DNA of 64,000 nt from Promethearchaeota archaeon (GTDB lineage: Archaea; Asgardarchaeota; Lokiarchaeia; Sigyniarchaeales; SOKP01): positions 1-64,000 of the forward strand of contig JAHPZJ010000020.1 of assembly GCA_019058245.1 (NCBI GenBank), in the 5' to 3' direction. Positions 1,846-38,540 of this stretch are shown here, piece by piece. A program made the translations under genes and the position numbers. Numbering within the stretch: the stretch's first letter is position 1; each line of letters begins with the position of its first letter. The notes under the pieces were generated by a model. It was not told the origin of the DNA. It was given only the letters and a program-made list of their open reading frames with translations, and did no database searches.

Positions 1846-2586
1846 ATGAGTTTTAATTACAATCTTGAAAATTTTAAAAACAAAAAGGATCTTATCGAGG
1901 AATTAGATTATTATAAATCTATCATTCTAAAGAAAATAAAGAATGGAGATTATAATTCTGCTTTAGAAAAAGTAAGATCAGCATTAGTATTAATAGAAGA
2001 ACATAAGAACGCTTTTAATATTGAGAAAGAAATTCGCGAATTTTATGAGATCAATAAAAAAGTGAGGGATGAATTACTTACCCACCGAATAACTTATGAA
2101 CGTCGTTTCAATAATCTTATAAAGGAAAAGCTTAGTGAAACAAATCTAGAAGATTTTACTAAATTGTTAGCCATGCTAAAGAATGAAGTAGACCAAAATA
2201 TGAATAAATATCATTTACAAGATATTAGTCTTAATATTACGAAATATTTTAAATTTATAAAGAAAATGTATGAAATTTTAAGTTGTTATAAAGTCCTAAA
2301 CTATCATGATGCTTCCGATAAAATTTTTGAGTTTGTAAAAGAAATTAAAGTTGAGAATTTCCCAAATTTGAAAAGACTCATTTCGTTAACTTATCAAAAT
2401 TTAATAAGGAATAGATTGTTCCAATGTTCAAAAGAATATGATAAACTCTCAATTTCAGCTCTTTCTAAAAGAATGGCTATGGATCAAGAGCAATTACTCG
2501 AAATTATTAATCTAATACAAAAACAACCTAAAAGTCCTATCCAAAATTACATTCCCAAAACTCAGGAAATTATTTTTAAAAAATAG
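1846..2586 (+). CDS. Helical-repeat protein with C-terminal PCI-like winged helix
   Basis: All-helical N-terminus; C-terminal NRLFQCSKEYDKLSISALSKRMAMDQEQLLEII resembles the PCI winged-helix pattern. Confidence 0.55.
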   Translation: MSFNYNLENFKNKKDLIEELDYYKSIILKKIKNGDYNSALEKVRSALVLIEEHKNAFNIEKEIREFYEINKKVRDELLTHRITYERRFNNLIKEKLSETNLEDFTKLLAMLKNEVDQNMNKYHLQDISLNITKYFKFIKKMYEILSCYKVLNYHDASDKIFEFVKEIKVENFPNLKRLISLTYQNLIRNRLFQCSKEYDKLSISALSKRMAMDQEQLLEIINLIQKQPKSPIQNYIPKTQEIIFKK

Positions 2587-2631: not shown

Positions 2632-2760
2632 TTATAAGCCTCTATAAGATTCTGGTCTTAAAATATTAGTATAAGTACATCCTTCGGTTAGTTGAATCAA
2701 AAGAGAATTTGCCTCGCTTGGAGGTCTAAATACAGGATGACAGAAATAGATTTCTTCCAT
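2632..2760 (-). pseudogene. Internally deleted radical SAM gene remnant (42 aa)
   Basis: Translates as MEEIYFCHPVFRPPSEANSLLIQLTEGCTYTNILRPESYRGL*. The N-terminus matches RPPVEAYSVLIPVTGGC of 11069..11977 but stops after the first Cys of CxxxCxxC. Confidence 0.75.
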
Positions 2761-2822
2761 TCTATGCACTATCTTTGAATCAATGCTATAATTTAGTGTT
2801 TTTTTGTACTTTATACATTAAT

Positions 2823-3524
2823 TTATTCTTCATCTTCATCATTTTCCGTTTCTGGAGGTTTCTTAGGGCAAGAGTTGAGATGACGTCCAAGTCTTTGAAA
2901 CTCTTTTCCACAATATGGACACTTTTGTTTCTCTGCGGTGCTTTTTTTATCCGTTTCAGAAGTTTCACTTACTTTCTTTTTCTTTTTCTTTTTTATTTTC
3001 GACGGCATAATATCTTCAATACTAGCATCATCAGGAGCAAATTCACAATTCCGAATATGCGAAGCTAAGTCATCAAATAGCTCTCCGCAAAAAGGACATT
3101 CAACTTCTTGAAAATCCTCAGAGTCCTCTAAATCAGCCTTTCCAGCTTTTCTTTTTTCGAATTTTAATGGTACTTTTTCTTCCTCTTCTTCAAATTCATC
3201 TATAGTTAAATCAATTTCTTCTTCAGATGTTATTTCAGCAATTTCAAATTCTTCCAATTTTATAGTCTTTTCTTTAATTTTCTTTTCAGCAATCTTTTTA
3301 CTTTCCTCGTATACTTCTGAAAATTTCCGATTACTTTTTACAGGATCATATATCGTACACACTTGACAAACATACGCTCGACTTCCTAAAACCAAATCTC
3401 TAGCAGAACAATAACATAATGATTGAAGACTGTTACTAATATTACCTTGAGGTTCAAGGTGTTTACACACAATTTTTCTAGAATATTTAATTTTTTGCTT
3501 GCGTCGTGGCGTGACAATCACCAA
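2823..3524 (-). CDS. Zinc-finger protein: Cys-rich N-terminus, acidic linker, two CCHC (C-x2-C-x9-H-x3-C) fingers
   Basis: CPFCGELFDDLASHIRNC and CPYCGKEFQRLGRHLNSC; poly-E and poly-K tracts; TTG start. Confidence 0.7.
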   Translation of the reverse strand: MVIVTPRRKQKIKYSRKIVCKHLEPQGNISNSLQSLCYCSARDLVLGSRAYVCQVCTIYDPVKSNRKFSEVYEESKKIAEKKIKEKTIKLEEFEIAEITSEEEIDLTIDEFEEEEEKVPLKFEKRKAGKADLEDSEDFQEVECPFCGELFDDLASHIRNCEFAPDDASIEDIMPSKIKKKKKKKVSETSETDKKSTAEKQKCPYCGKEFQRLGRHLNSCPKKPPETENDEDEE

Positions 3525-3611: not shown

Positions 3612-5201
3612 TTAAAAATTATAATGTAGTTTTTTCAGATCCTTTTCAATTTTACTTTTTAATTCTTTATTTTCTAATTTTGATAATAATTCTTCTACAA
3701 TGTCTCTTAATTCTACGATTTTTTGTATCAGTAAATCCGGCTTATTCCAAAAATCAGTTCTTAGAGGATGCATTTTAAGAATTGCCTTATTGAAATTCTC
3801 TATTGCAGCTCTATAAAATAAACAAGCATTTTCTATTTTATTAAGTCTTGATTGATAAATGGATCCTATTTTATTAAAACACATTCCTGCACCCGCAAAA
3901 TCTCCTTCTTTTTCAAAATTTATAGCAGCTTCTTGGACTTTATTCAATGCACTTTCTAAAACATTATTATCTCCCTTTTTCAACAATAAATACCCACTAA
4001 TATAATGTGATATTCCTAAATAGAAAAGATTATTTTGCTTTTTAGCCAATTTATACAATTCGCCAGAAAATTCTCCAGCAAAAATAAAATGCTCATTTGA
4101 GATGCATTTTTGAGCTACTATTCTCAATAATTCTAATACTCTTTCAAAATCTTTAATTTCCTTATATTTATCAATTCCCTGTCTGTATTTTTCAACTCCA
4201 ATAAATGAATCTTTATTCTCGAAAGCTTGATTTCCTTTATAAATTAATTGTTCGGCAGTTTCTATTAACTTTATTTGTTTCTGCTTTTTTTTCCCCTCTA
4301 TATCACCATAAAAAAAATCATTAACTCCAAATGCAACATCTTCAGTCATTGGAATTTCAGTTAAAATCTCTTTCTTTATTGCATTAATTGGTTCAGAGAG
4401 AGATTCGATGTTCTTCTCATGTGAAAATTCTTCCCTATATGCAGATTGTAATGGTTTTCCTTCTGTTACCAATGCAGAAAGCTCAGACAATACATTTGCG
4501 AAAAAATATTTGTTTAATCCATCTACTACATAATCTATTTTATGATAGTTATTATCAAATCCTGGATCATTGACATCCATATTTACATCGGTTATTCTAT
4601 AGACTTCAAAGCCAGTATCATATTTTGCCATAGTATGTTCTGAGCCATCTTCACTTTTTATTATTTCTTCTTTTTTCTTTCCTAATAAAGTATGATCAAA
4701 TACTAAACCACAAAAATCATTATTAGTTTGTTGAAAACCAAGTTGATTAATTAAATCTATATAGGAAAAGAATAAGTTTAATCCAGGATGACTATGAAAC
4801 CATCCCACCATATAATAGCCTTTACCCTCCTTATTGAGCCTCTCTTGAATCTCTTCAATAAATCCATAATGTCTTTCATCTAACTGTACATCAGTAGAAT
4901 GTCCGAAAGTTAATGCTTCTGAACGTTCAATATACACTAAATCTTCATCTGATTTTCCAATTAAAATACCGTATATTTCTTTCCATTCCTCTGGAGGTAT
5001 AGATTTATTTGCATATCGACTTGCATATAAAATTATAGTTTTATAAGCATCTGCTCGAATAATCACAGGTTTACTTATTCTGTGTGTTTGTTCTTCCTCT
5101 TGTTTTTTCTCTAAATTTTCATGTAGATCTTCCTTTTTAGCTTCTTCCTCATCACTTGATTGTTTTAAATCCTCAGACATTTTAATTATACCAAATTTCA
5201 A
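3612..5201 (-). CDS. JAMM/MPN+ metallo-isopeptidase (Rpn11/CSN5-like) fused to C-terminal TPR/SNAP-like repeats
   Basis: KEIYGILIG (catalytic Glu) and VGWFHSHPGLNLFFSYID (H-x-H-x7-S-x2-D). The true start may be MSEDL at 5180. Confidence 0.85.
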   Translation of the reverse strand: MKFGIIKMSEDLKQSSDEEEAKKEDLHENLEKKQEEEQTHRISKPVIIRADAYKTIILYASRYANKSIPPEEWKEIYGILIGKSDEDLVYIERSEALTFGHSTDVQLDERHYGFIEEIQERLNKEGKGYYMVGWFHSHPGLNLFFSYIDLINQLGFQQTNNDFCGLVFDHTLLGKKKEEIIKSEDGSEHTMAKYDTGFEVYRITDVNMDVNDPGFDNNYHKIDYVVDGLNKYFFANVLSELSALVTEGKPLQSAYREEFSHEKNIESLSEPINAIKKEILTEIPMTEDVAFGVNDFFYGDIEGKKKQKQIKLIETAEQLIYKGNQAFENKDSFIGVEKYRQGIDKYKEIKDFERVLELLRIVAQKCISNEHFIFAGEFSGELYKLAKKQNNLFYLGISHYISGYLLLKKGDNNVLESALNKVQEAAINFEKEGDFAGAGMCFNKIGSIYQSRLNKIENACLFYRAAIENFNKAILKMHPLRTDFWNKPDLLIQKIVELRDIVEELLSKLENKELKSKIEKDLKKLHYNF

Positions 5202-10198: not shown

Positions 10199-10795
10199 TC
10201 ACACAACTACACAGGAAACATGTCGTTTTTTCAACATTAGATTATTCAAATTTTTAAAAACCTCTAAAACATTATAATTCTTTAAAGCTGAAGTTCTTTT
10301 AAAACCATTAAGATTTTTGTTTTTTAAAAACTCGAATATTAATTTATTACTCACGATTTCTGAATCTGGAATACTATTAATTAAATCACTTTTACTTCCG
10401 ACAAGAATTATAGGAATATTCTTATTAACTGCATTTTCAATTATTATATTATACCAAAACTCTAATTGATTAAATGAGCTATAATTAACTGAATCAAATA
10501 CTAATAATGCTCCATTAGCTCCCTCTATAAATTTAGGGATTAATGGTGCAAATCTTTCTTGACCCCCAAAATCAAAGATTGAATTTACAATATAATTTTC
10601 TTTTAATGTATCTGGATTTTTTTTTAGATTAACTTTTAGATAAACTGAATGAAAATTAATTCCGATTGTAGGTGAGGTATCAAAATTAAATGAATTGAAA
10701 CAATAGCGATTAAATAAACTAGTTTTACCAACTGAACTAGCTCCACATATTACTGTTTTAAAGTTATATAATACGTCTCCCTGAATATAGCTCAT
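10199..10795 (-). CDS. Rab/Ras-like small GTPase with C-terminal CaaX-like motif
   Basis: G1 GASSVGKTS, G2 PTIG, G3 FDFGGQERF, G4 GSKSD, G5 TSA; ends KKRHVSCVVV*. Confidence 0.92.
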   Translation of the reverse strand: MSYIQGDVLYNFKTVICGASSVGKTSLFNRYCFNSFNFDTSPTIGINFHSVYLKVNLKKNPDTLKENYIVNSIFDFGGQERFAPLIPKFIEGANGALLVFDSVNYSSFNQLEFWYNIIIENAVNKNIPIILVGSKSDLINSIPDSEIVSNKLIFEFLKNKNLNGFKRTSALKNYNVLEVFKNLNNLMLKKRHVSCVVV

Positions 10796-11068: not shown

Positions 11069-11977
11069 ATGACTATTAAAATACCTGCTGATCACATTGT
11101 AATTAGACCTCCAGTAGAAGCCTATTCCGTATTAATACCAGTAACAGGTGGGTGTTCATGGAATAAATGTAGATTTTGTGGGACTTATAAAGGTGTTTAT
11201 GGAGTTACTCAAGATTATTCAATACGATCTTTAGAAGATGTCAAAAAAGATATCGATAACTTTGCTAAAACTAATTATCATGGTTTTCCTGTATTTTTGG
11301 CTGGAGGAAATCCTACATCTGCTCCAACAGAATATTTAGTTGAAATTATTAAATATGTTAGAGTAAAACTAAAAAATGTTCCTCGAATCAGTTGTTATGC
11401 TAAAGCGTTGGATATTCTAAGAAAGACGGATGAAGAATTAAAATCATTGGCAAATGCTGGATTAAATATTGTCTATATGGGATTAGAAAGTGGTTCAAAT
11501 ACTATATTAAGAATTATGAAAAAAGGAACTAATGCGGAATCATTTATTAAAGCAGGGAAAAGAATTTTAAAAGCAGGAATTAAATTATCATTATATATTA
11601 TTTTAGGATTAGGAAGTTATAAGTATTCAGAAGAACATGTAAAAGAAACAGCCAGAATATTAACTGAAATAAATCCAACCATTTTTAGATTCCGAACCTT
11701 AAATATTTTACAAGGTACTCCTCTTTGGGATGAATGGAACTCCGGACAGTTTCAATTATTAAATCCTATAGAAAATTTAAAAGAAGAAAGGGAAATAATT
11801 GCTAATTTAGGTGAAAATGTCACTTCTCAAGTCTTTAACGACCATATTTCAAATTATTGCGCAATTGAATCTGCCAATATTAAAGAAGATAAAGAAATAT
11901 TCCTCAAGACTTTAGATGCATATATAAATGACCCAAAAATTCAGAATTTGCCGAGAAAAAATTTACAACGTATGTAA
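11069..11977 (+). CDS. Radical SAM protein
   Basis: RPPxEA, CSWNKCRFC, YMGLESGS. Confidence 0.88.
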   Translation: MTIKIPADHIVIRPPVEAYSVLIPVTGGCSWNKCRFCGTYKGVYGVTQDYSIRSLEDVKKDIDNFAKTNYHGFPVFLAGGNPTSAPTEYLVEIIKYVRVKLKNVPRISCYAKALDILRKTDEELKSLANAGLNIVYMGLESGSNTILRIMKKGTNAESFIKAGKRILKAGIKLSLYIILGLGSYKYSEEHVKETARILTEINPTIFRFRTLNILQGTPLWDEWNSGQFQLLNPIENLKEEREIIANLGENVTSQVFNDHISNYCAIESANIKEDKEIFLKTLDAYINDPKIQNLPRKNLQRM

Positions 11978-32151: not shown

Positions 32152-34853
32152 TATTTGATCTTCTCTATTAAGTTTGGTATCTCTAAAATCTCTTTCCTGT
32201 AATCACTATCTAAATTAGCTAAACCATCACCAATATTTTTAACACTTTCTAAACTGTAAATTAACTCCTCGAGGTATGTTATAAGATCTCCTTTAAAGAC
32301 TAATATCTTATATTCTTTAATCAAATAGTTAGAAATTTCTTCAATTGTCATTTTATCTTTAACTCGTAAATTTAATATTAATTTTTCCAAACTTAATCGT
32401 CCACAATCGCAATATGGATTATCCTTACAGGTACAATTAAATATATCACTTGTTAATTTCATAATAAAGTCAATAAAATCACGTGAAAATGTTTTTCTTT
32501 TTTTTACATAATCAGCATTCATCAATGATAATACACTAGCACTGAATAAATTGTTGGAAAAATATTTCATATTAACATTTTTTGATAAATCGGCAACTAA
32601 ATCTTTAGATAAATAAACATTTCTAAGATTTTCTAAGTCTAAAGCAATATCTAAAGGATTCTTAATTTTATCTTGCATTACTTTAATTATCTCAAGACTT
32701 TTTTCAACAGATAAAAAGGAATTGGCAATTGCTCTTCCTAAACGAGTGTTTTTTAATTTTAAGTCTTCTCTAATTCGCACTAATTTAAAGGACAATAATT
32801 TCTTCAAAATCGCCTCTAGGTCAAAATAATTATTGATTAAATTATCATAAAATTTAAAGATGATTTCCTTTGAAATCCATTCATTAAACATAGCAATAAA
32901 TGCAAGAATTTCTGTTTGTGACTTATCTTCATTAGGAATAAGTTCATAATCCTTGATCTTTCCATTTAAAAGTTTAATCGCAATATTTTCTTCTGTAATT
33001 TTCATTTTGGGAGAATAAACTTTTCCAGGCTCAACAAGTATATAGGCTAAACCTTTCTCATGCTTTTTTAATCTTCCCGATCTTCCAATCATTTGTTCAA
33101 ATTCAGCAACTGTTAACCACTTTATACCCATTGCTAAAGACTCAAAAATAACTTGACTTGCGGGAAGATCAACTCCTGCAGCTAAAGCAGCAGTTGCAAC
33201 TACTCCCATTATTTGCTGAGATTGAAAATTTTCTTCAATTTTTTTTCTTTCTTCGTTTGTTAATCCAGAATGATAAGCAACTACTGGAAGATTTCTGTGT
33301 TGCAAATATAAGGATATTGATTCACACTTTTTACGAGTATTTGTGAATACTATTGATTGACCTTTGAATCCATAAATGGATTTTTTAGAAAAGGCAGCTT
33401 TAATTAAGTTAGAAATATATTTTTGTTTTTGAGTTTCATTCAGACACATTAATAAATGACGTTCGACCGGGACTGGGCGATTATCATACCTAATTAATTC
33501 ACAGTTTAGTTTTTTTGCTAATAATTTTGGTTCTCCTAATGTTGCACTCAAATATAGAAACTGGGAATTAAATTGCGTTTTTAACCGGGATATTAAACCA
33601 TCTAATATAAATCCTCGCTCTTGATCTATCAACGTTTGAATTTCATCGATAATAATTGTCCCAATATTTCCTAAAAGCGCTATATTCCCACTTCTTAAAA
33701 TATAATCAATTGCCTCATAAGTTGCAATAATCACATGAGCATTAACTAAATCTTTAATATTGTTTTCCTCTTTTTTTCCAAATAAAGACTCTCCAACTCT
33801 TTTTATTACCTTCAAATTAATTGATTTATATTTTTCTTTAAATTCTTCTGTTCTTATATTGGCCAAAGCCACAATCGGTACTAAGTATAACATCTTAGCG
33901 TTTCTCTGATTTAAAACTTTTGATATTCCCGCTAATTCACCTACTAATGTTTTACCTCCACTTGTAGGGGCCATTATTAATTGATTAGTATGTTCTGATA
34001 ATAACCCTTTTTCTATAGAAATTGCTTGTATTGGTAATAAAGTAGTTAAATTTAGCTCTTTCATTATCTTTTTAAACACTGTAGGAATATTCAGATTGTC
34101 AATTTTTTGATTAAGATATTTTTTATTGATTGAAGGTGTCTTTTCAACATCATAGAGCGTTATTTCACGGTCTTTTACAGGATTAAAATCGGTCTTAAAA
34201 GCATCTAATATTTTTTTGACATCTTTAAATTTAAGAATCATATGCATTAGAAAATTCTTTAACTTAGGACTGATTTTCTCTTTAGAAATCATCCCTGTCA
34301 ATTTTATTCTGTTCACAACAATATCATAAGAGCATTCGGAACAGATAATTTGATTTTTTAAAGATTTAATTTGATTGTTCTTATTTAGTAATGTAAACTT
34401 ATTTTTATCTAAACATGAATCACAAATAGTTAAATTGATGATTTTCTCTGTATCAAATTGAAAACTGTTCAACATCTCTTTAACTGGTAATATATCTTCA
34501 GATCTGGTTTGGTTTGAAAATGCAATAAATTTATTCTTATCTGAAACCATAAATTTCTTAAGTAAACGTGGATCAACTGGTTTTGAGTTTCCATTATTCT
34601 CAATTTTATTAAAATAAAGTGGTCTCATCTTGTTTTTAAAATCTAACCCAAAAATTACCGTACCTTTAAAGAATGGTTCATTTACATATGTAAATTTGAA
34701 TTTTTTTTTCTTGAATGATTTAAGGTAAAAGAAATTAATATTAAAAAGTAATTCTTTTCTATGCTCACGATTTCTATCCAAAACAATGAAAAAATTTCTT
34801 AAAGGAACACTCAATTTGAATCCATTAGTGGATAATAATAAATTAGTATGCAA
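32148..34853 (-). CDS. Archaeal SF2 DExH-type helicase with DUF5814-like C-terminus
   Basis: APTSGGKT, DEIQ, LSAT, YHSGL, QMIGRSGR; CTCKDNPYCDCG. Confidence 0.88.
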   Translation of the reverse strand: MHTNLLLSTNGFKLSVPLRNFFIVLDRNREHRKELLFNINFFYLKSFKKKKFKFTYVNEPFFKGTVIFGLDFKNKMRPLYFNKIENNGNSKPVDPRLLKKFMVSDKNKFIAFSNQTRSEDILPVKEMLNSFQFDTEKIINLTICDSCLDKNKFTLLNKNNQIKSLKNQIICSECSYDIVVNRIKLTGMISKEKISPKLKNFLMHMILKFKDVKKILDAFKTDFNPVKDREITLYDVEKTPSINKKYLNQKIDNLNIPTVFKKIMKELNLTTLLPIQAISIEKGLLSEHTNQLIMAPTSGGKTLVGELAGISKVLNQRNAKMLYLVPIVALANIRTEEFKEKYKSINLKVIKRVGESLFGKKEENNIKDLVNAHVIIATYEAIDYILRSGNIALLGNIGTIIIDEIQTLIDQERGFILDGLISRLKTQFNSQFLYLSATLGEPKLLAKKLNCELIRYDNRPVPVERHLLMCLNETQKQKYISNLIKAAFSKKSIYGFKGQSIVFTNTRKKCESISLYLQHRNLPVVAYHSGLTNEERKKIEENFQSQQIMGVVATAALAAGVDLPASQVIFESLAMGIKWLTVAEFEQMIGRSGRLKKHEKGLAYILVEPGKVYSPKMKITEENIAIKLLNGKIKDYELIPNEDKSQTEILAFIAMFNEWISKEIIFKFYDNLINNYFDLEAILKKLLSFKLVRIREDLKLKNTRLGRAIANSFLSVEKSLEIIKVMQDKIKNPLDIALDLENLRNVYLSKDLVADLSKNVNMKYFSNNLFSASVLSLMNADYVKKRKTFSRDFIDFIMKLTSDIFNCTCKDNPYCDCGRLSLEKLILNLRVKDKMTIEEISNYLIKEYKILVFKGDLITYLEELIYSLESVKNIGDGLANLDSDYRKEILEIPNLIEKIKY

Positions 34854-34940
34854 CTCAACAATTCAATTTTTCTATATTAAAAAAACTAAAATCATTTAAG
34901 TAAGGATTTAGATTTAGGTAAATAAAAAATAAATTAAAAA

Positions 34941-35102
34941 TTAGAAACCAAAAACTTGTTTAATTTTATCATAGACTTCTTTTATTTGCCTAAGTTTTGT
35001 CTCATCTCCTTGATTCATAAAATGGGTAATCCAATCAGCTAGACCATTATTTTTAATCCATTCAAGAAAATATTCAACAGATTGGCGTTCTTCAGCAGAC
35101 AT
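34941..35102 (-). CDS. Small hypothetical protein (53 aa; below the ORF-track cutoff)
   Basis: MSAEERQSVEYFLEWIKNNGLADWITHFMNQGDETKLRQIKEVYDKIKQVFGF*; coding-like composition within an AT-rich gap. Confidence 0.65.
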   Translation of the reverse strand: MSAEERQSVEYFLEWIKNNGLADWITHFMNQGDETKLRQIKEVYDKIKQVFGF

Positions 35103-35253
35103 TTTTTCTTTTACTTTTCTCTTATATTTATTTTTATTTTTAATTTTCTACCTATATAAAGATTATAAATTATTCTATTTTATATTTTTATAATTCCAAA
35201 TCAATTTAATTTTACATATAAAATATAAAAATAAATTTTTGAAATGATATAAT

Positions 35254-36210
35254 ATGTCGGTAAGAATTAAAACTCCAAATTTAGATGAAATTTTTGAGAA
35301 ATGGAAACAGAAAGCAGTAAGAACAGACAAAAAAAAGATGGAAAAGCAATTTGGAACAAAAGGAGCAGTTTTTTCTTTAGATGCTGTAAGTGCAGCGGAA
35401 TATGTTAAGGATACAATGAAAGAAGCAGCTATTTATTTCGCTGTGAAAAAATCTCTTGGTCCCGCCCCCAAAGGCAAAGAAGAAAATTTAGTGCTTGCTC
35501 CAAAAGTAAGTAGAGAGCAATATTATTCCTTCAAAGGAGCAGGTAATATAAATAAAGAAAATTGGAAAAGTAATGATATGGTACCTCACTATGAATCAAT
35601 TCAAGCGGTCCCTTGCAAGAATTGTAAGGGGAAGGGGTATATGGAGAATAAATGCAAAACTTGTAAAGGAACTGGAAAAATTGAGGAAACACTTACAGTA
35701 TTAGTTGGAGAAGAGCAAAAGAAGGAAAAGAAAATCTTTTCATATCCCTGTGGTGCCTGTTATGGAACTGGCAATAGACAAGAACCATGCAAAGAATGTG
35801 GGGGGCATAAAAATATGTATAAATACGAGGTTCTCCCTGTTCCTTTCAAAACGGTAATTACTGGAGTTCCTATATTGCATAGTAGTGCTCAAACAAGATA
35901 TGAGAAGCAAATCGGTGATGATCTTCATAAAATGATTGAAGATGTCGAAGGGATTAGATTTAGTGACTTTAAAGAATTAGAGTCGAAAGTTGAGCCTTCC
36001 TTAGGATATATGAATAAAAATATTAGTAAAACTGTTGGAGCTGCTAGAAGTGATTATAGGACTTATGAGAAAGATAAAGATGCTCAAATAACATCTCAAA
36101 TTTACTTATTTCCAATGATTCAGATGTTCTGTGAGACTAAACGTGGAAGCAAGTTTGAAATTTATTCCCTTGGCTCTGGTAATAAATTTATGATTTATTC
36201 AAACTTTTAA
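35254..36210 (+). CDS. DnaJ-type Cys-rich zinc-finger protein without J-domain (SSUH2-like)
   Basis: CKNCKGKG, CKTCKGTG, CGACYGTG, CKECGG; no HPD motif. Confidence 0.7.
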   Translation: MSVRIKTPNLDEIFEKWKQKAVRTDKKKMEKQFGTKGAVFSLDAVSAAEYVKDTMKEAAIYFAVKKSLGPAPKGKEENLVLAPKVSREQYYSFKGAGNINKENWKSNDMVPHYESIQAVPCKNCKGKGYMENKCKTCKGTGKIEETLTVLVGEEQKKEKKIFSYPCGACYGTGNRQEPCKECGGHKNMYKYEVLPVPFKTVITGVPILHSSAQTRYEKQIGDDLHKMIEDVEGIRFSDFKELESKVEPSLGYMNKNISKTVGAARSDYRTYEKDKDAQITSQIYLFPMIQMFCETKRGSKFEIYSLGSGNKFMIYSNF

Positions 36211-36451
36211 ATTATTTTTTTTAATTTAAATTACAAAAAATATTTCATTATACTGGAACCTCTCTTTTTTTTTTGAATTTTTTAAAAATTACTGATAATG
36301 AGATTGTAATTCTAGTAAATACAAATAAAATAAACAAACTGTAAAAATACATTCTTATCATGAAATATATTTAAAACATATAAAGATTTAAAAATAAAGG
36401 AGGATAGGTTACATATAAGTTTAAACTTATATATCTCAAAGTAGTGATAAT

Positions 36452-37102
36452 TTGCAGGAAGAAAGTAAAATAAAAAAAATTAAAAAATCCTATAAACCTA
36501 AAAATCTAATAGGATATCTCATACCAAATAATGTAATATCTATTTCAATTATTGGTATCTTTGCGGCATTAATTTGCATATTAACAATGATAATTTCAAT
36601 ACCAATTCCAGCAACACAGGGCTTTATTAATATTGGAGATGCTGGTGTTATGTTTACAGGATTAATCTTTGGTCCTTTCATAGGAGGATTATCAGGTGGT
36701 ATTGGTTCTGCTTTAGCAGATATTTTTCTGGGTTATACTATATACGCACCAGCTACATTAATTATTAAAGGATTAGAAGGATTAATAATAGGGATAATTG
36801 CGAATCCTAGGAAAAATTATACAAAATTAAATTATCGAGATATTTTAGCGATTATAATTGGAGGGTTAATTATGGTATTTGGATATTTTATTTATGAGAT
36901 TATACTCTGGGGATTTGCAATTGCATTGTTTGAAGTAATTTTAAATGGGATTATACAATTTGGCCTTGCTGGTGTAATTTCTCTAATTTTAGTATTAGTA
37001 GCTCGAAAAAACATTATTCAAAATTTTCCTCAAGTATTTGATAAGATATTTAAAATTGAAGAATTAGAAGAAATTGAGAATAGGAATTTTAAAGAAGGGT
37101 AA
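36452..37102 (+). CDS. ECF transporter S component
   Basis: GFINIGDAGV, GGIGSALAD, YAPATLIIKGLEG. Confidence 0.88.
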   Translation: MQEESKIKKIKKSYKPKNLIGYLIPNNVISISIIGIFAALICILTMIISIPIPATQGFINIGDAGVMFTGLIFGPFIGGLSGGIGSALADIFLGYTIYAPATLIIKGLEGLIIGIIANPRKNYTKLNYRDILAIIIGGLIMVFGYFIYEIILWGFAIALFEVILNGIIQFGLAGVISLILVLVARKNIIQNFPQVFDKIFKIEELEEIENRNFKEG

Positions 37103-38540
37103 TTAACACATCCAAAGCATCTAATACTCGCTTTCCGCTATTAGTTATAAAATATAAAACATTCTTTCCTTCCTTTTTTCTTGATATTAAACCCTTTATT
37201 TCCAATTCTTTCAAATGCTGATAAATAGCAGCTAAGCTTATCGTGCCCATAGTTTCTTTAATATCTGTTCCGGTTATACCTTTAATACTCGAAAGTGAGA
37301 TTTGAGAAAGTATTTTTAACTTAGTAATGATGATAGAACCTTTTCCTGTAGTTTTGGTTTGGGATGAAATTGCTTCTAAAATATAGGGGGCTTTTAAACC
37401 ACTTCCTGTAATGAGACACACAACAGAGTCTTTAGATTCAAACGTTTGTTTTTGTTCTAATAATTGAATAGCAGCAAGAGTTAAAGCTGAAGAAGGCTCT
37501 GCAAATATTCCCTCATCCCTTATAAGTTGCTCAATTGAAGGGAATATAAAATTTTCAGGAATAGCAATTACAGTTCCTTTACTATCTTTTATACACTTAA
37601 TTGCTAAATTTTTATATAACGGTTTTTGTACTAAGATACCTAATGCCATTGATTTAATATTTTTTGGAGATTCTTTTTTATGTTTATGATTATTAAAAAA
37701 ATCGTTTATAATCGGAGATGACGATTGAGATTGAACACCTATTAATTTTGGAATATCTTTAATAATTTCAATTTCTTTTAATTCATTAAAACCTTTCCAA
37801 AGACTTACTAGAAGTTCTCCACTTCCCATTGGAATTATTATCCAATTGGGTAATTCAATCTGATTAATGATTTCATAAGCGATGGTTTTTTGTGCTTCTA
37901 GAGTTAGAGGATTTAATTCTGGGGTACATTGATAATAATCATTTAATTCATTATTATCTATTACATAATCGATAGCGTCATCAACAGTATTTCCAATAGT
38001 TTTTAAATCAGAATCATATGCTATAATTTGAGCCTTTTTTCCCAAATCAATTTCATTAGGAATAATATTCAAACATTCTATTCTCTCAAGAGAAGAATAT
38101 GCTGCAATTGAAGCACCTTGATTTCCATTCGACGCACAAACTATTTTATTAAAATCCCAACTCCTCGCATGTGATACTAATAATGCCGCTGCCCGATCCT
38201 TAAATGAATTCGTTGGATTTTTCGTTTCATCTTTAAAAAATAAATTTTTTATATTCAATTTTTCACTAAAACTTTTTGAAGCTCTACAAGGAGTTCCTCC
38301 TTCTCCTAAAGATATGATAAAATCTTTTTTTATTGAAGGAAATGTGAAATTATAATCCCAGAAATTATTATTAATCTTAATTTTAGAAAATTTATCTTTA
38401 AACTTTTCAAGTTTGCATTCAAACCATAAAAATCCTCCACATTCAGGACACTTATGTTGGATTGAGCGGAATTCAGATTTTTTGCCGCATTCAATACAAG
38501 TTAGAGTTAGTGGATTTTTTATAATGGGATTACCTCTCAA
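37089..38540 (-). CDS. thrC: Threonine synthase with N-terminal Zn ribbon and C-terminal ArsR-like HTH
   Basis: LGEGGTP, NPTNSFKDR, ASNGN, EPSSA, ITGSGLK; tail ISLAAIYQHLKELEIKGLI. Confidence 0.85.
   Translation of the reverse strand: MRGNPIIKNPLTLTCIECGKKSEFRSIQHKCPECGGFLWFECKLEKFKDKFSKIKINNNFWDYNFTFPSIKKDFIISLGEGGTPCRASKSFSEKLNIKNLFFKDETKNPTNSFKDRAAALLVSHARSWDFNKIVCASNGNQGASIAAYSSLERIECLNIIPNEIDLGKKAQIIAYDSDLKTIGNTVDDAIDYVIDNNELNDYYQCTPELNPLTLEAQKTIAYEIINQIELPNWIIIPMGSGELLVSLWKGFNELKEIEIIKDIPKLIGVQSQSSSPIINDFFNNHKHKKESPKNIKSMALGILVQKPLYKNLAIKCIKDSKGTVIAIPENFIFPSIEQLIRDEGIFAEPSSALTLAAIQLLEQKQTFESKDSVVCLITGSGLKAPYILEAISSQTKTTGKGSIIITKLKILSQISLSSIKGITGTDIKETMGTISLAAIYQHLKELEIKGLISRKKEGKNVLYFITNSGKRVLDALDVLITLL

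Follow-up and report, generated by a model that had tools for sequence, protein, structure and literature searches.

A conserved JAMM-TPR fusion protein of Lokiarchaeia, predicted to be a target-selective isopeptidase for ubiquitin-like conjugates

The protein described here, JAMM-TPR, is a real, conserved and new architecture within the known JAMM/MPN+ enzyme class, and we predict, with a probability of about 0.6, that it is a target-selective zinc isopeptidase for ubiquitin-like conjugates that carries its own targeting arm. Its gene lies in a window of 64,000 nucleotides (the whole stretch of DNA analysed) from a Promethearchaeota archaeon with a genome of 3.09 Mb and 76% completeness. On the minus strand it forms a single open frame, 3612-5201, which comprises 529 codons when read from TTG 5201. 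The database gene call and the lengths of homologues favour ATG 5180 as the start, giving a protein of 522 amino acids (P0002), and residues are numbered accordingly throughout. Both motifs quoted in the initial annotation of this DNA were present in the open frame exactly as quoted. No RNA is listed at the locus, and a sigma-70 promoter and terminator scan, a model unsuited to archaea, gave matches at chance level only. The gene is made up as follows:

3612..5201, minus strand: JAMM-TPR gene, 522 amino acids from ATG 5180 or 529 from TTG 5201
5073..5180, minus strand: acidic, disordered and weakly conserved N-terminal tail (residues 1-36; pLDDT <50 for 1-33)
4431..5072, minus strand: MPN+ (JAMM) domain, Rpn11/CSN5-like, including Ins-1 and a helix at its C-terminal end (residues 37-250)
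4977..4979, minus strand: catalytic Glu68 (alignment with CsRpn11; kept in 119/120 homologues)
4755..4796, minus strand: zinc site H129-S-H131-x7-S139-x2-D142, invariant in 120 homologues
4611..4691, minus strand: beta-hairpin insertion at about the Ins-2 position (residues ~164-190; model strands 169-175 and 181-187, pLDDT 57-73)
4431..4520, minus strand: helix after the MPN core (residues 221-250)
4299..4430, minus strand: disordered acidic linker of varying length with a short conserved L-x-E-I-P motif (residues 251-294)
3615..4298, minus strand: TPR solenoid of four ~40-residue helix pairs with a conserved H-P-L-R loop and two closing helices (residues 295-522)

The fusion is widespread among relatives of the host. 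The 120 homologues listed are 59-87% identical across almost their full length, and those with names are mostly Promethearchaeota (Lokiarchaeia) MAG proteins. JAMM and TPR occur in a single open frame at 80/80 independent GTDB loci; the fusion is therefore no assembly artefact, and a chimeric assembly was ruled out as its source. A class-wide search recovered the gene, as a single copy, from 119/126 host-family genomes, and with a patchy distribution from both sister families of the order. The TPR domain itself is likewise single-copy, being present in 38/40 family genomes, 1/3 sister-family genomes and 0/157 other genomes of the phylum that were searched, and it stands in frame with the JAMM domain wherever the contig is whole. 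Two closed sister-family genomes (4.4 and 4.3 Mb) yielded no orthologue, and JAMM-TPR is therefore not essential for the order. Some members carry the automatic IMG label of RPN8/RPN11 plus TPR. Our literature search, with subscription papers and supplements outside its coverage, found no description of an Asgard JAMM-TPR fusion, and the main text of two Asgard surveys does not mention MPN, JAMM or PCI.

The JAMM half has an intact active site. Against the motif definition E-xn-H[ST]H-x7-S-x2-D (PMC300881), the site residues are E68, H129, S130, H131, S139 and D142. Across the alignment of 120 homologues, H129, H131, S139, D142, N145 and Q146 are invariant; E68, which aligns with the corresponding Glu of CsRpn11, is retained in all rows except one, which has a gap there. 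The complete JAMM motif in a eukaryote-like context that had been read from the sequence is thus borne out. The domain matches Pfam JAB at E 1.3e-13 (51 bits vs a cut-off of 22.5) and Pfam Prok-JAB at 22.6 bits, and the JAB match, together with Foldseek matches to Rpn11 and CSN5 at E ~1e-10, supports an MPN fold. Ins-1 is the segment that positions the ubiquitin tail; at residues ~88-104 it aligns with CsRpn11 and CSN5, the sole gap being of one residue. The hairpin at ~164-190, which is 13 residues shorter in the aligned sister-family orthologue, may correspond to Ins-2 by position, lying near where Rpn11 and AMSH have that insertion; CsRpn11 is without Ins-2 (PMC6043591).

Residues 221-240, just after the MPN core, form the best-conserved 20-residue block of the protein (0.96) in spite of low model confidence, which suggests that the helix 221-250 is a candidate interaction surface. 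The N-terminal tail is far more variable (column identity 0.52) and holds 13 D/E vs 6 K/R. An AlphaFold2 model of the full-length protein, built with 120 sequences, comprised an MPN domain at about 37-245 and an all-helical C-terminal domain, with pLDDT <50 over 238-297 and no transmembrane segment. Its low pTM of 0.46 fits two domains that would have no fixed mutual orientation. As the halves are split by a disordered acidic linker of ~50 amino acids, the TPR domain is best regarded as a tethered arm and not as a rigid extension.

Comparison with known families by sequence and fold showed the JAMM half to be of the Rpn11/CSN5 type. The JAMM-domain profile ranked CsRpn11 first (6e-17), followed by Rpn11 (2e-13), CSN5 (6e-13) and BRCC36 (3e-10), with Rpn8 (3e-5) and AMSH-LP (7e-5) at the weaker end. 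Foldseek gave Rpn11 and CSN5 as the top matches of the MPN domain, and the NCBIfam desampylase model scored the protein at 13.7 vs a cut-off of 130. The JAMM half is therefore Rpn11/CSN5-like, as the initial annotation had proposed, and no ordinary prokaryotic JAMM. The best solved sequence match is CsRpn11 of Caldiarchaeum subterraneum (PDB 6FJU, 6FJV, 6FNN; PMC6043591), at E 1e-11 with the single sequence and 6e-17 with the profile. Both proteins are archaeal, possess the JAMM site and an alignable Ins-1, and have no known lid. However, CsRpn11 has ~200 amino acids and comes from a ubiquitin modification gene cluster, whereas JAMM-TPR lies away from ubiquitin genes, has additional residues inserted near the Ins-2 position as well as a linker and a TPR arm of 228 amino acids, and is one of about 4-8 paralogues in a host with a separate E2-linked Rpn11.

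Eukaryotic Rpn11/PSMD14, CSN5 and BRCC36 head the Foldseek matches and have the MPN+ fold and the motif context in common with JAMM-TPR, and all of them use helical recruiting elements. Their helical partners are, however, separate subunits (PCI, MPN-), and they bear C-terminal bundle helices that were not detected in JAMM-TPR: neither MitMem_reg nor CSN5_C, the C-terminal helical-bundle domains sought, gave a Pfam match up to E 1, while a real CSN5 matched CSN5_C at 5e-23. AMSH/STAMBP is a free JAMM deubiquitinase with a helical targeting domain, the N-terminal MIT, on the same chain. By analogy JAMM-TPR would work in a similar way, with its own targeting domain beside the JAMM, although AMSH is the weakest eukaryotic MPN+ match (7e-5 to 3e-4), its MIT is N-terminal where the TPR is C-terminal, and no ESCRT link is apparent for JAMM-TPR.

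Phylogenetic analysis addressed the origin of this paralogue through two quick trees of the MPN core (147 columns), sampled from the query's own profile and including one eukaryotic row (CSN5, on a long branch) and two small prokaryotic JAMMs whose branches were too long for rooting. The query and three paralogues on contig C24 fell inside a large group sampled from Lokiarchaeia and Helarchaeota, and the query clade stood apart from the operon copy of Rpn11 (SH-aLRT 96-98 on these 147 columns) and likewise from the single-copy Rpn11s of other Asgard families. The CSN5 row, a single long branch, grouped with these single-copy Rpn11s and not with the query clade (support 96-99); an AU test with CSN5 joined to the TPR-bearing group did not reject that alternative (p 0.069). 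Nothing in the quick trees appears to favour a special link between the query clade and eukaryotic Rpn11/CSN5. They suggest a lineage-specific paralogue, not an Rpn11/CSN5 ancestor, and on present sequence evidence JAMM-TPR is a member of a Lokiarchaeia/Helarchaeota paralogue expansion distinct from the ubiquitin-operon Rpn11.

The gene content of these genomes shows the extent of that expansion. The number of JAB matches per genome is mostly 4-8 in the host family vs 1-2 in most other Asgard families. A separate Rpn11 paralogue of ~275 amino acids adjoins the E2 gene in the host family and forms its own clade in the quick trees; no ubiquitin, E1, E2 or RING gene was recognised among the conserved neighbours of JAMM-TPR (45 loci), and identity with the ubiquitin-operon Rpn11 was rejected on these two grounds. 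Other paralogues combine JAMM with TPR in different ways, including a clade of 410 amino acids with a weakly related TPR, longer fusions to TPR_12, and forms with the TPR N-terminal to the JAMM, one of them from Helarchaeota. Coiled-coil tails also occur, as does one TIR tail, in a form that is without the second His of the JAMM motif, and there is a complete gene in which the TPR of JAMM-TPR itself follows a TIR head. Forms with TIR are rare singletons. With sister JAMM paralogues bearing varied tails and the same TPR following TIR, the two halves behave as swappable modules. The contrast that had been drawn with small, single-domain archaeal JAMMs therefore needs amending: the fusion is real, but JAMMs fused into longer proteins (with TPR, coiled coil or TIR) are common in this lineage.

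We then consider the C-terminal arm. Residues 295-522, folded alone, gave a confident model of ten helices (228 amino acids, mean pLDDT 95, pTM 0.89), in agreement with the earlier description of the last ~220 amino acids as helical repeats and of the domain as a built-in adaptor, which can now be specified as a TPR solenoid on a flexible tether. A fold search with this model was led by Pins (Z 19.1, rmsd 2.9) and LGN (Z 17.8, rmsd 2.8), with many unrelated TPRs behind them; most of the top matches, with Z up to 19, are TPR proteins, that is, superhelices of antiparallel helix pairs. Pins/LGN and the kinesin light chain (Z 15.2) share the ~40-residue repeats of the arm, but their identity to it is only 13-17% and such likeness of fold says nothing of a shared ligand. 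From Foldseek and the Atlas came LGN, kinesin light chain and Rap as well as bacterial TPR_12 proteins. A feature search of the ESM Atlas with the TPR part gave generic TPR clusters only, below 0.9, and a search of PDB sequences with the TPR profile gave only weak single-repeat matches (Sgt2, an Rgg protein). Conserved basic and Asn residues in the arm are N317, K437, R445, N464, R474, K480 and K487. EEVD-binding co-chaperone TPRs such as Hop and Sgt2 have a dicarboxylate clamp of Lys/Asn in the first helix; in the alignment with Sgt2 the Asn is retained and the Lys is replaced by Ile, and a clamp of this type was rejected for the arm on that pair, the only one aligned. On the strength of the model, the domain is best called a generic long-repeat TPR with conserved basic and Asn residues.

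The initial annotation had spoken instead of helices like those of alpha-SNAP/TPR that might link modifier removal to AAA-ATPase or membrane complexes. In its full form, this reading would make the arm a true alpha-SNAP relative that couples tag removal to an AAA ATPase of the NSF/Cdc48 type or to membrane complexes. There is some basis for this in the repeats themselves: one repeat pair is alike in sequence, Pfam SNAP is matched at E<0.01 by 67/83 members through that pair, and among the folds Sec17 took fourth place, with Z 16.6 across 208 residues, alpha-SNAP having Z 13.9. Yet Rgg_C is matched by more members (77/83), and the query reaches only 19.7-22 bits on the SNAP model, short of its cut-off (25), and is outscored there by generic TPR_12 proteins encoded in its own genome, with up to 38 bits. 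The Sec17 and alpha-SNAP superpositions are also loose (rmsd 6.0 for Sec17 and 5.8-6.0 for the two, vs 2.8-2.9 for Pins/LGN). Aligned over its full length (1-228), the domain covers Sec17 24-231 of 292 and alpha-SNAP 30-232 of 286, so that the last ~55-60 SNAP residues have no counterpart in JAMM-TPR; this C-terminal part of SNAP is the region that touches the NSF N domains (PMC6457932). A profile search among proteins of 121-401 amino acids recovered fragments of the JAMM-TPR family and one TIR fusion, and no SNAP. No AAA gene was recognised among the conserved neighbours, which, with the absence of a transmembrane segment from the model, leaves the proposed connection to AAA-ATPase or membrane complexes unsupported as well. 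We therefore consider a SNAP-like adaptor very unlikely, though the folds of the arm and of SNAP may be distant kin. Of a pair of outcomes that the annotation had set against its own reading, a generic TPR at the C-terminus is what we found; grouping of the JAMM half with ordinary prokaryotic JAMMs did not occur.

The genomic context of JAMM-TPR is conserved and bears on its possible partners. The neighbouring features in the window are:

2823..3524, minus strand: co-oriented downstream zinc-finger gene, 233 amino acids, with a Cys-rich N-terminal module, an acidic middle and two C-x2-C-x9-H-x3-C fingers
2671..2769, minus strand: remnant of a radical SAM gene, its first 33 codons, 76% identical
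1846..2586, plus strand: convergent gene, 246 amino acids, whose helical product has a PCI-like winged helix at its end (Pfam PCI E 0.0075, under the cut-off)

In 42/42 wide loci the zinc-finger gene comes next downstream, at a distance of 65-182 bases (715 in one), and in 75/75 GTDB loci with room it is no more than about 500 bases away; the pairing extends into both sister families. It was nevertheless rejected as an obligate partner, the gene being retained in two closed genomes where JAMM-TPR is missing. Compared with UBZ-type ubiquitin-binding fingers, thirty members of the zinc-finger family gave only weak, generic zinc-finger matches, the best being zf-Di19 in 18/30 at E of at least 4e-4. 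A predicted complex between JAMM-TPR (37-522) and this neighbour scored 0.01, the fold of the partner being uncertain, and counts neither for nor against binding. In relatives a radical SAM gene follows the zinc-finger gene; as it has decayed to a remnant in this genome, it was discarded as part of the system, and so was the upstream pair of TPP-enzyme genes, found at only 19/45 loci. The PCI-like gene is present in 25/40 family genomes and at 48/59 loci with room, lying within ~3 kb of JAMM-TPR whenever both share a contig, and there are a few other PCI matches elsewhere in the host genome. It was not found in the other 15/40 family genomes, nearly all of which keep JAMM-TPR, nor in the sister family; the 15 include all four genomes of genus g2, three of which are 98-100% complete.

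These neighbours could be taken to mean that JAMM-TPR belongs to a minimal MPN-PCI module, a small archaeal analogue of the proteasome lid or signalosome in which the PCI-like protein, and perhaps the zinc-finger protein in the part of a ubiquitin reader, would dock on the TPR arm. The proximity of both genes speaks for such a module, as do the decay of the radical SAM gene, which leaves JAMM-TPR, zinc-finger and PCI-like genes adjacent here, and a lid subunit chain (8amz_Q, Z 12.2, rmsd 6.2) among the fold matches of the TPR. On the other side stand the 15 family genomes and the sister family without the PCI-like gene, its position on the opposite strand in a region where the whole gene order is conserved, the survival of the zinc-finger gene without JAMM-TPR, and the failure of the C-terminal Pfam domains of both Rpn11 and CSN5 to match. 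PCI complexes (lid, CSN, eIF3) have an MPN pair and six PCI subunits; one PCI-like neighbour is seen here. We regard the module as possible but doubtful.

The ubiquitin-like system of the host supplies candidate substrates and, with them, another view of the enzyme. An E2 is present in 40/40 family genomes, though none was found in the 76%-complete host genome itself. The same contig, C20, carries 60 kb away (65540-65794) a ubiquitin-like gene with 89-100% identity throughout the family. Its product ends in Gly-Gly plus 1-3 residues at 21/30 loci, in Gly-Gly-Phe in this genome, so something must trim this precursor. A second ubiquitin-like protein, ending in Ala-Gly, is encoded on C13. The main task of JAMM-TPR might then be to remove the 1-3 residues after the Gly-Gly of one such precursor, the TPR merely localising the enzyme, and CsRpn11 indeed processes its own precursor substrate (PMC6043591). 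However, at the remaining 9/30 loci the protein has no tail, several other JAMM paralogues could do the trimming, and the conserved ubiquitin-like protein also occurs in closed genome G228, which is without JAMM-TPR. Neither ubiquitin-like protein is tied specifically to this paralogue, and we rate a dedicated maturase as improbable. We give equally little credence to a sensor-gated protease, in which a ligand or foreign protein sensed by the TPR would activate the JAMM to cleave either a non-ubiquitin target or an infection-time conjugate. The occurrence of the TPR behind TIR and of a TIR tail in the same JAMM clade is in keeping with this, as are the peptide-sensing TPRs of Rap, PlcR and Rgg among the matches; but a single-copy gene in 119/126 genomes, with a fixed neighbourhood and vertical-looking conservation, is unlike defence genes, and of the TIR forms, rare singletons, the JAMM-TIR one has lost the second His.

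The reading we prefer remains that of a target-selective zinc isopeptidase. It is supported by the invariant site, the matches to CsRpn11, Rpn11, CSN5 and BRCC36, the TPR fold matches, the universal E2 of the family, the conserved ubiquitin-like protein and the expanded paralogue set with its varied tails; against it count the lack of an adjoining ubiquitin, E1, E2 or E3 gene in the loci examined, the two closed sister-family genomes that yielded no orthologue, and the missing E2 of the host assembly. An intact JAMM motif would not identify the substrate, and JAMM proteins work outside ubiquitin systems too (PMC300881). By established JAMM chemistry, H129, H131 and D142 would hold the zinc, E68 would activate the water and S139 would stabilise the intermediate. 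In this chemistry, a zinc-activated water cleaves just behind the C-terminal Gly-Gly of a ubiquitin-like protein. TPRs of the LGN and KLC type bind extended peptides, and the arm of JAMM-TPR may likewise take hold of a substrate or scaffold through an extended peptide, probably an acidic one, in the manner of the Pins/LGN and kinesin light chain TPRs, its conserved basic and Asn residues being candidate groove residues. The linker, at ~50 residues, would let the catalytic domain reach the ubiquitin-like tag on the gripped target. In this role JAMM-TPR would erase tags from selected targets, alongside the operon-encoded housekeeping Rpn11, its TPR doing the recruiting that separate subunits do in eukaryotic JAMM complexes.

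The value of the finding is limited in that the protein is probably, as the trees suggest, a lineage-specific paralogue, that IMG labels already exist, and that the striking link to SNAP and membrane fusion fails. Archaeal deubiquitination has so far been studied through one small soluble enzyme, CsRpn11. The host family of JAMM-TPR has about 4-8 Rpn11-like paralogues, several with recognition arms of their own, and this set points to substrate-specific ubiquitin-like signalling over simple tag recycling, in parallel to eukaryotes. More speculatively, Lokiarchaeia may have independently fused target-specific JAMM deubiquitinases, with the TPR of this member assembling with the PCI-like neighbour, the zinc-finger neighbour or both into a small MPN-PCI complex, an idea that we put forward as a long shot. 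If true, this mini-complex would parallel the lid and the signalosome in archaea and would illustrate the way in which an MPN enzyme was first joined to helical scaffolds. As a soluble two-domain protein with candidate substrates in the same genome, JAMM-TPR would make the origin of JAMM targeting modules testable in vitro.

Genes near the JAMM-TPR gene, and some from elsewhere in the host genome, were as follows (window positions unless a contig is named):

2671-2769, reverse strand: decayed remnant of a radical SAM gene
2823-3524, reverse strand: zinc-finger gene
10199-10795, reverse strand: Rab-like small GTPase gene (Pfam Ras, 7e-31)
contig C20 65540-65794 (L046:1489-1743), reverse strand, shortly past the window end: ubiquitin-like gene
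contig C27 44460-45359, reverse strand: 807-residue open frame with PCI-domain matches
contig C24 about 33200-38020 (L001:7194-12021): cluster of three further Rpn11-like JAMM genes, motifs intact in all three

The zinc-finger gene, which starts with TTG or another non-ATG codon, is single-copy in 42 of 43 genomes from the order (Sigyniarchaeales), and none was found outside the order in the phylum sample. Its Cys-rich N-terminal module is order-specific and has no Pfam family. Nearly all relatives keep an intact radical SAM gene where the host has the remnant; a paralogue survives in the host at 11069-11977. The Rab-like GTPase gene, an ordinary Asgard eukaryotic-signature gene, sits within the conserved neighbourhood upstream of the JAMM-TPR gene.

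The ubiquitin-like protein is 89-100% identical across the host's family, where it ends in Gly-Gly plus 0-3 residues. In the host genome and most of its genus, no in-frame ATG, GTG or TTG was present at the expected start, and the start codon there is likely ATT or ATA; several other genera have ATG. The three PCI-domain matches of the C27 frame all exceed the Pfam cut-off.

Two of the C24 JAMM genes, of 488 and 455 aa, run in the same direction, separated by 6 bases, and have long, coiled-coil-like tails; together they resemble BRCC36-Abraxas-type pairs. The third (316 aa) is divergent. Relatives show a similar arrangement.

Fusions of either module to a TIR domain were found at three loci:

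L172:2254-3426 and L173:1154-2326, both forward strand: complete TIR-TPR gene
L174:4262-5299, forward strand: JAMM-TIR fusion gene, its JAMM from the same clade as JAMM-TPR

In the TIR-TPR gene, a TIR head replaces the JAMM, the TPR shares 52% identity with that of the JAMM-TPR protein, and the neighbourhood differs from the JAMM-TPR locus. The JAMM of the JAMM-TIR fusion lacks the second His; genes for a proteasome alpha subunit, a small GTPase and a sirtuin lie nearby. The reverse architecture, TPR repeats preceding an intact JAMM, was seen in two proteins encoded outside the window, P0151 (from Helarchaeota) and P0207. JAMM and TPR were probably joined more than once.
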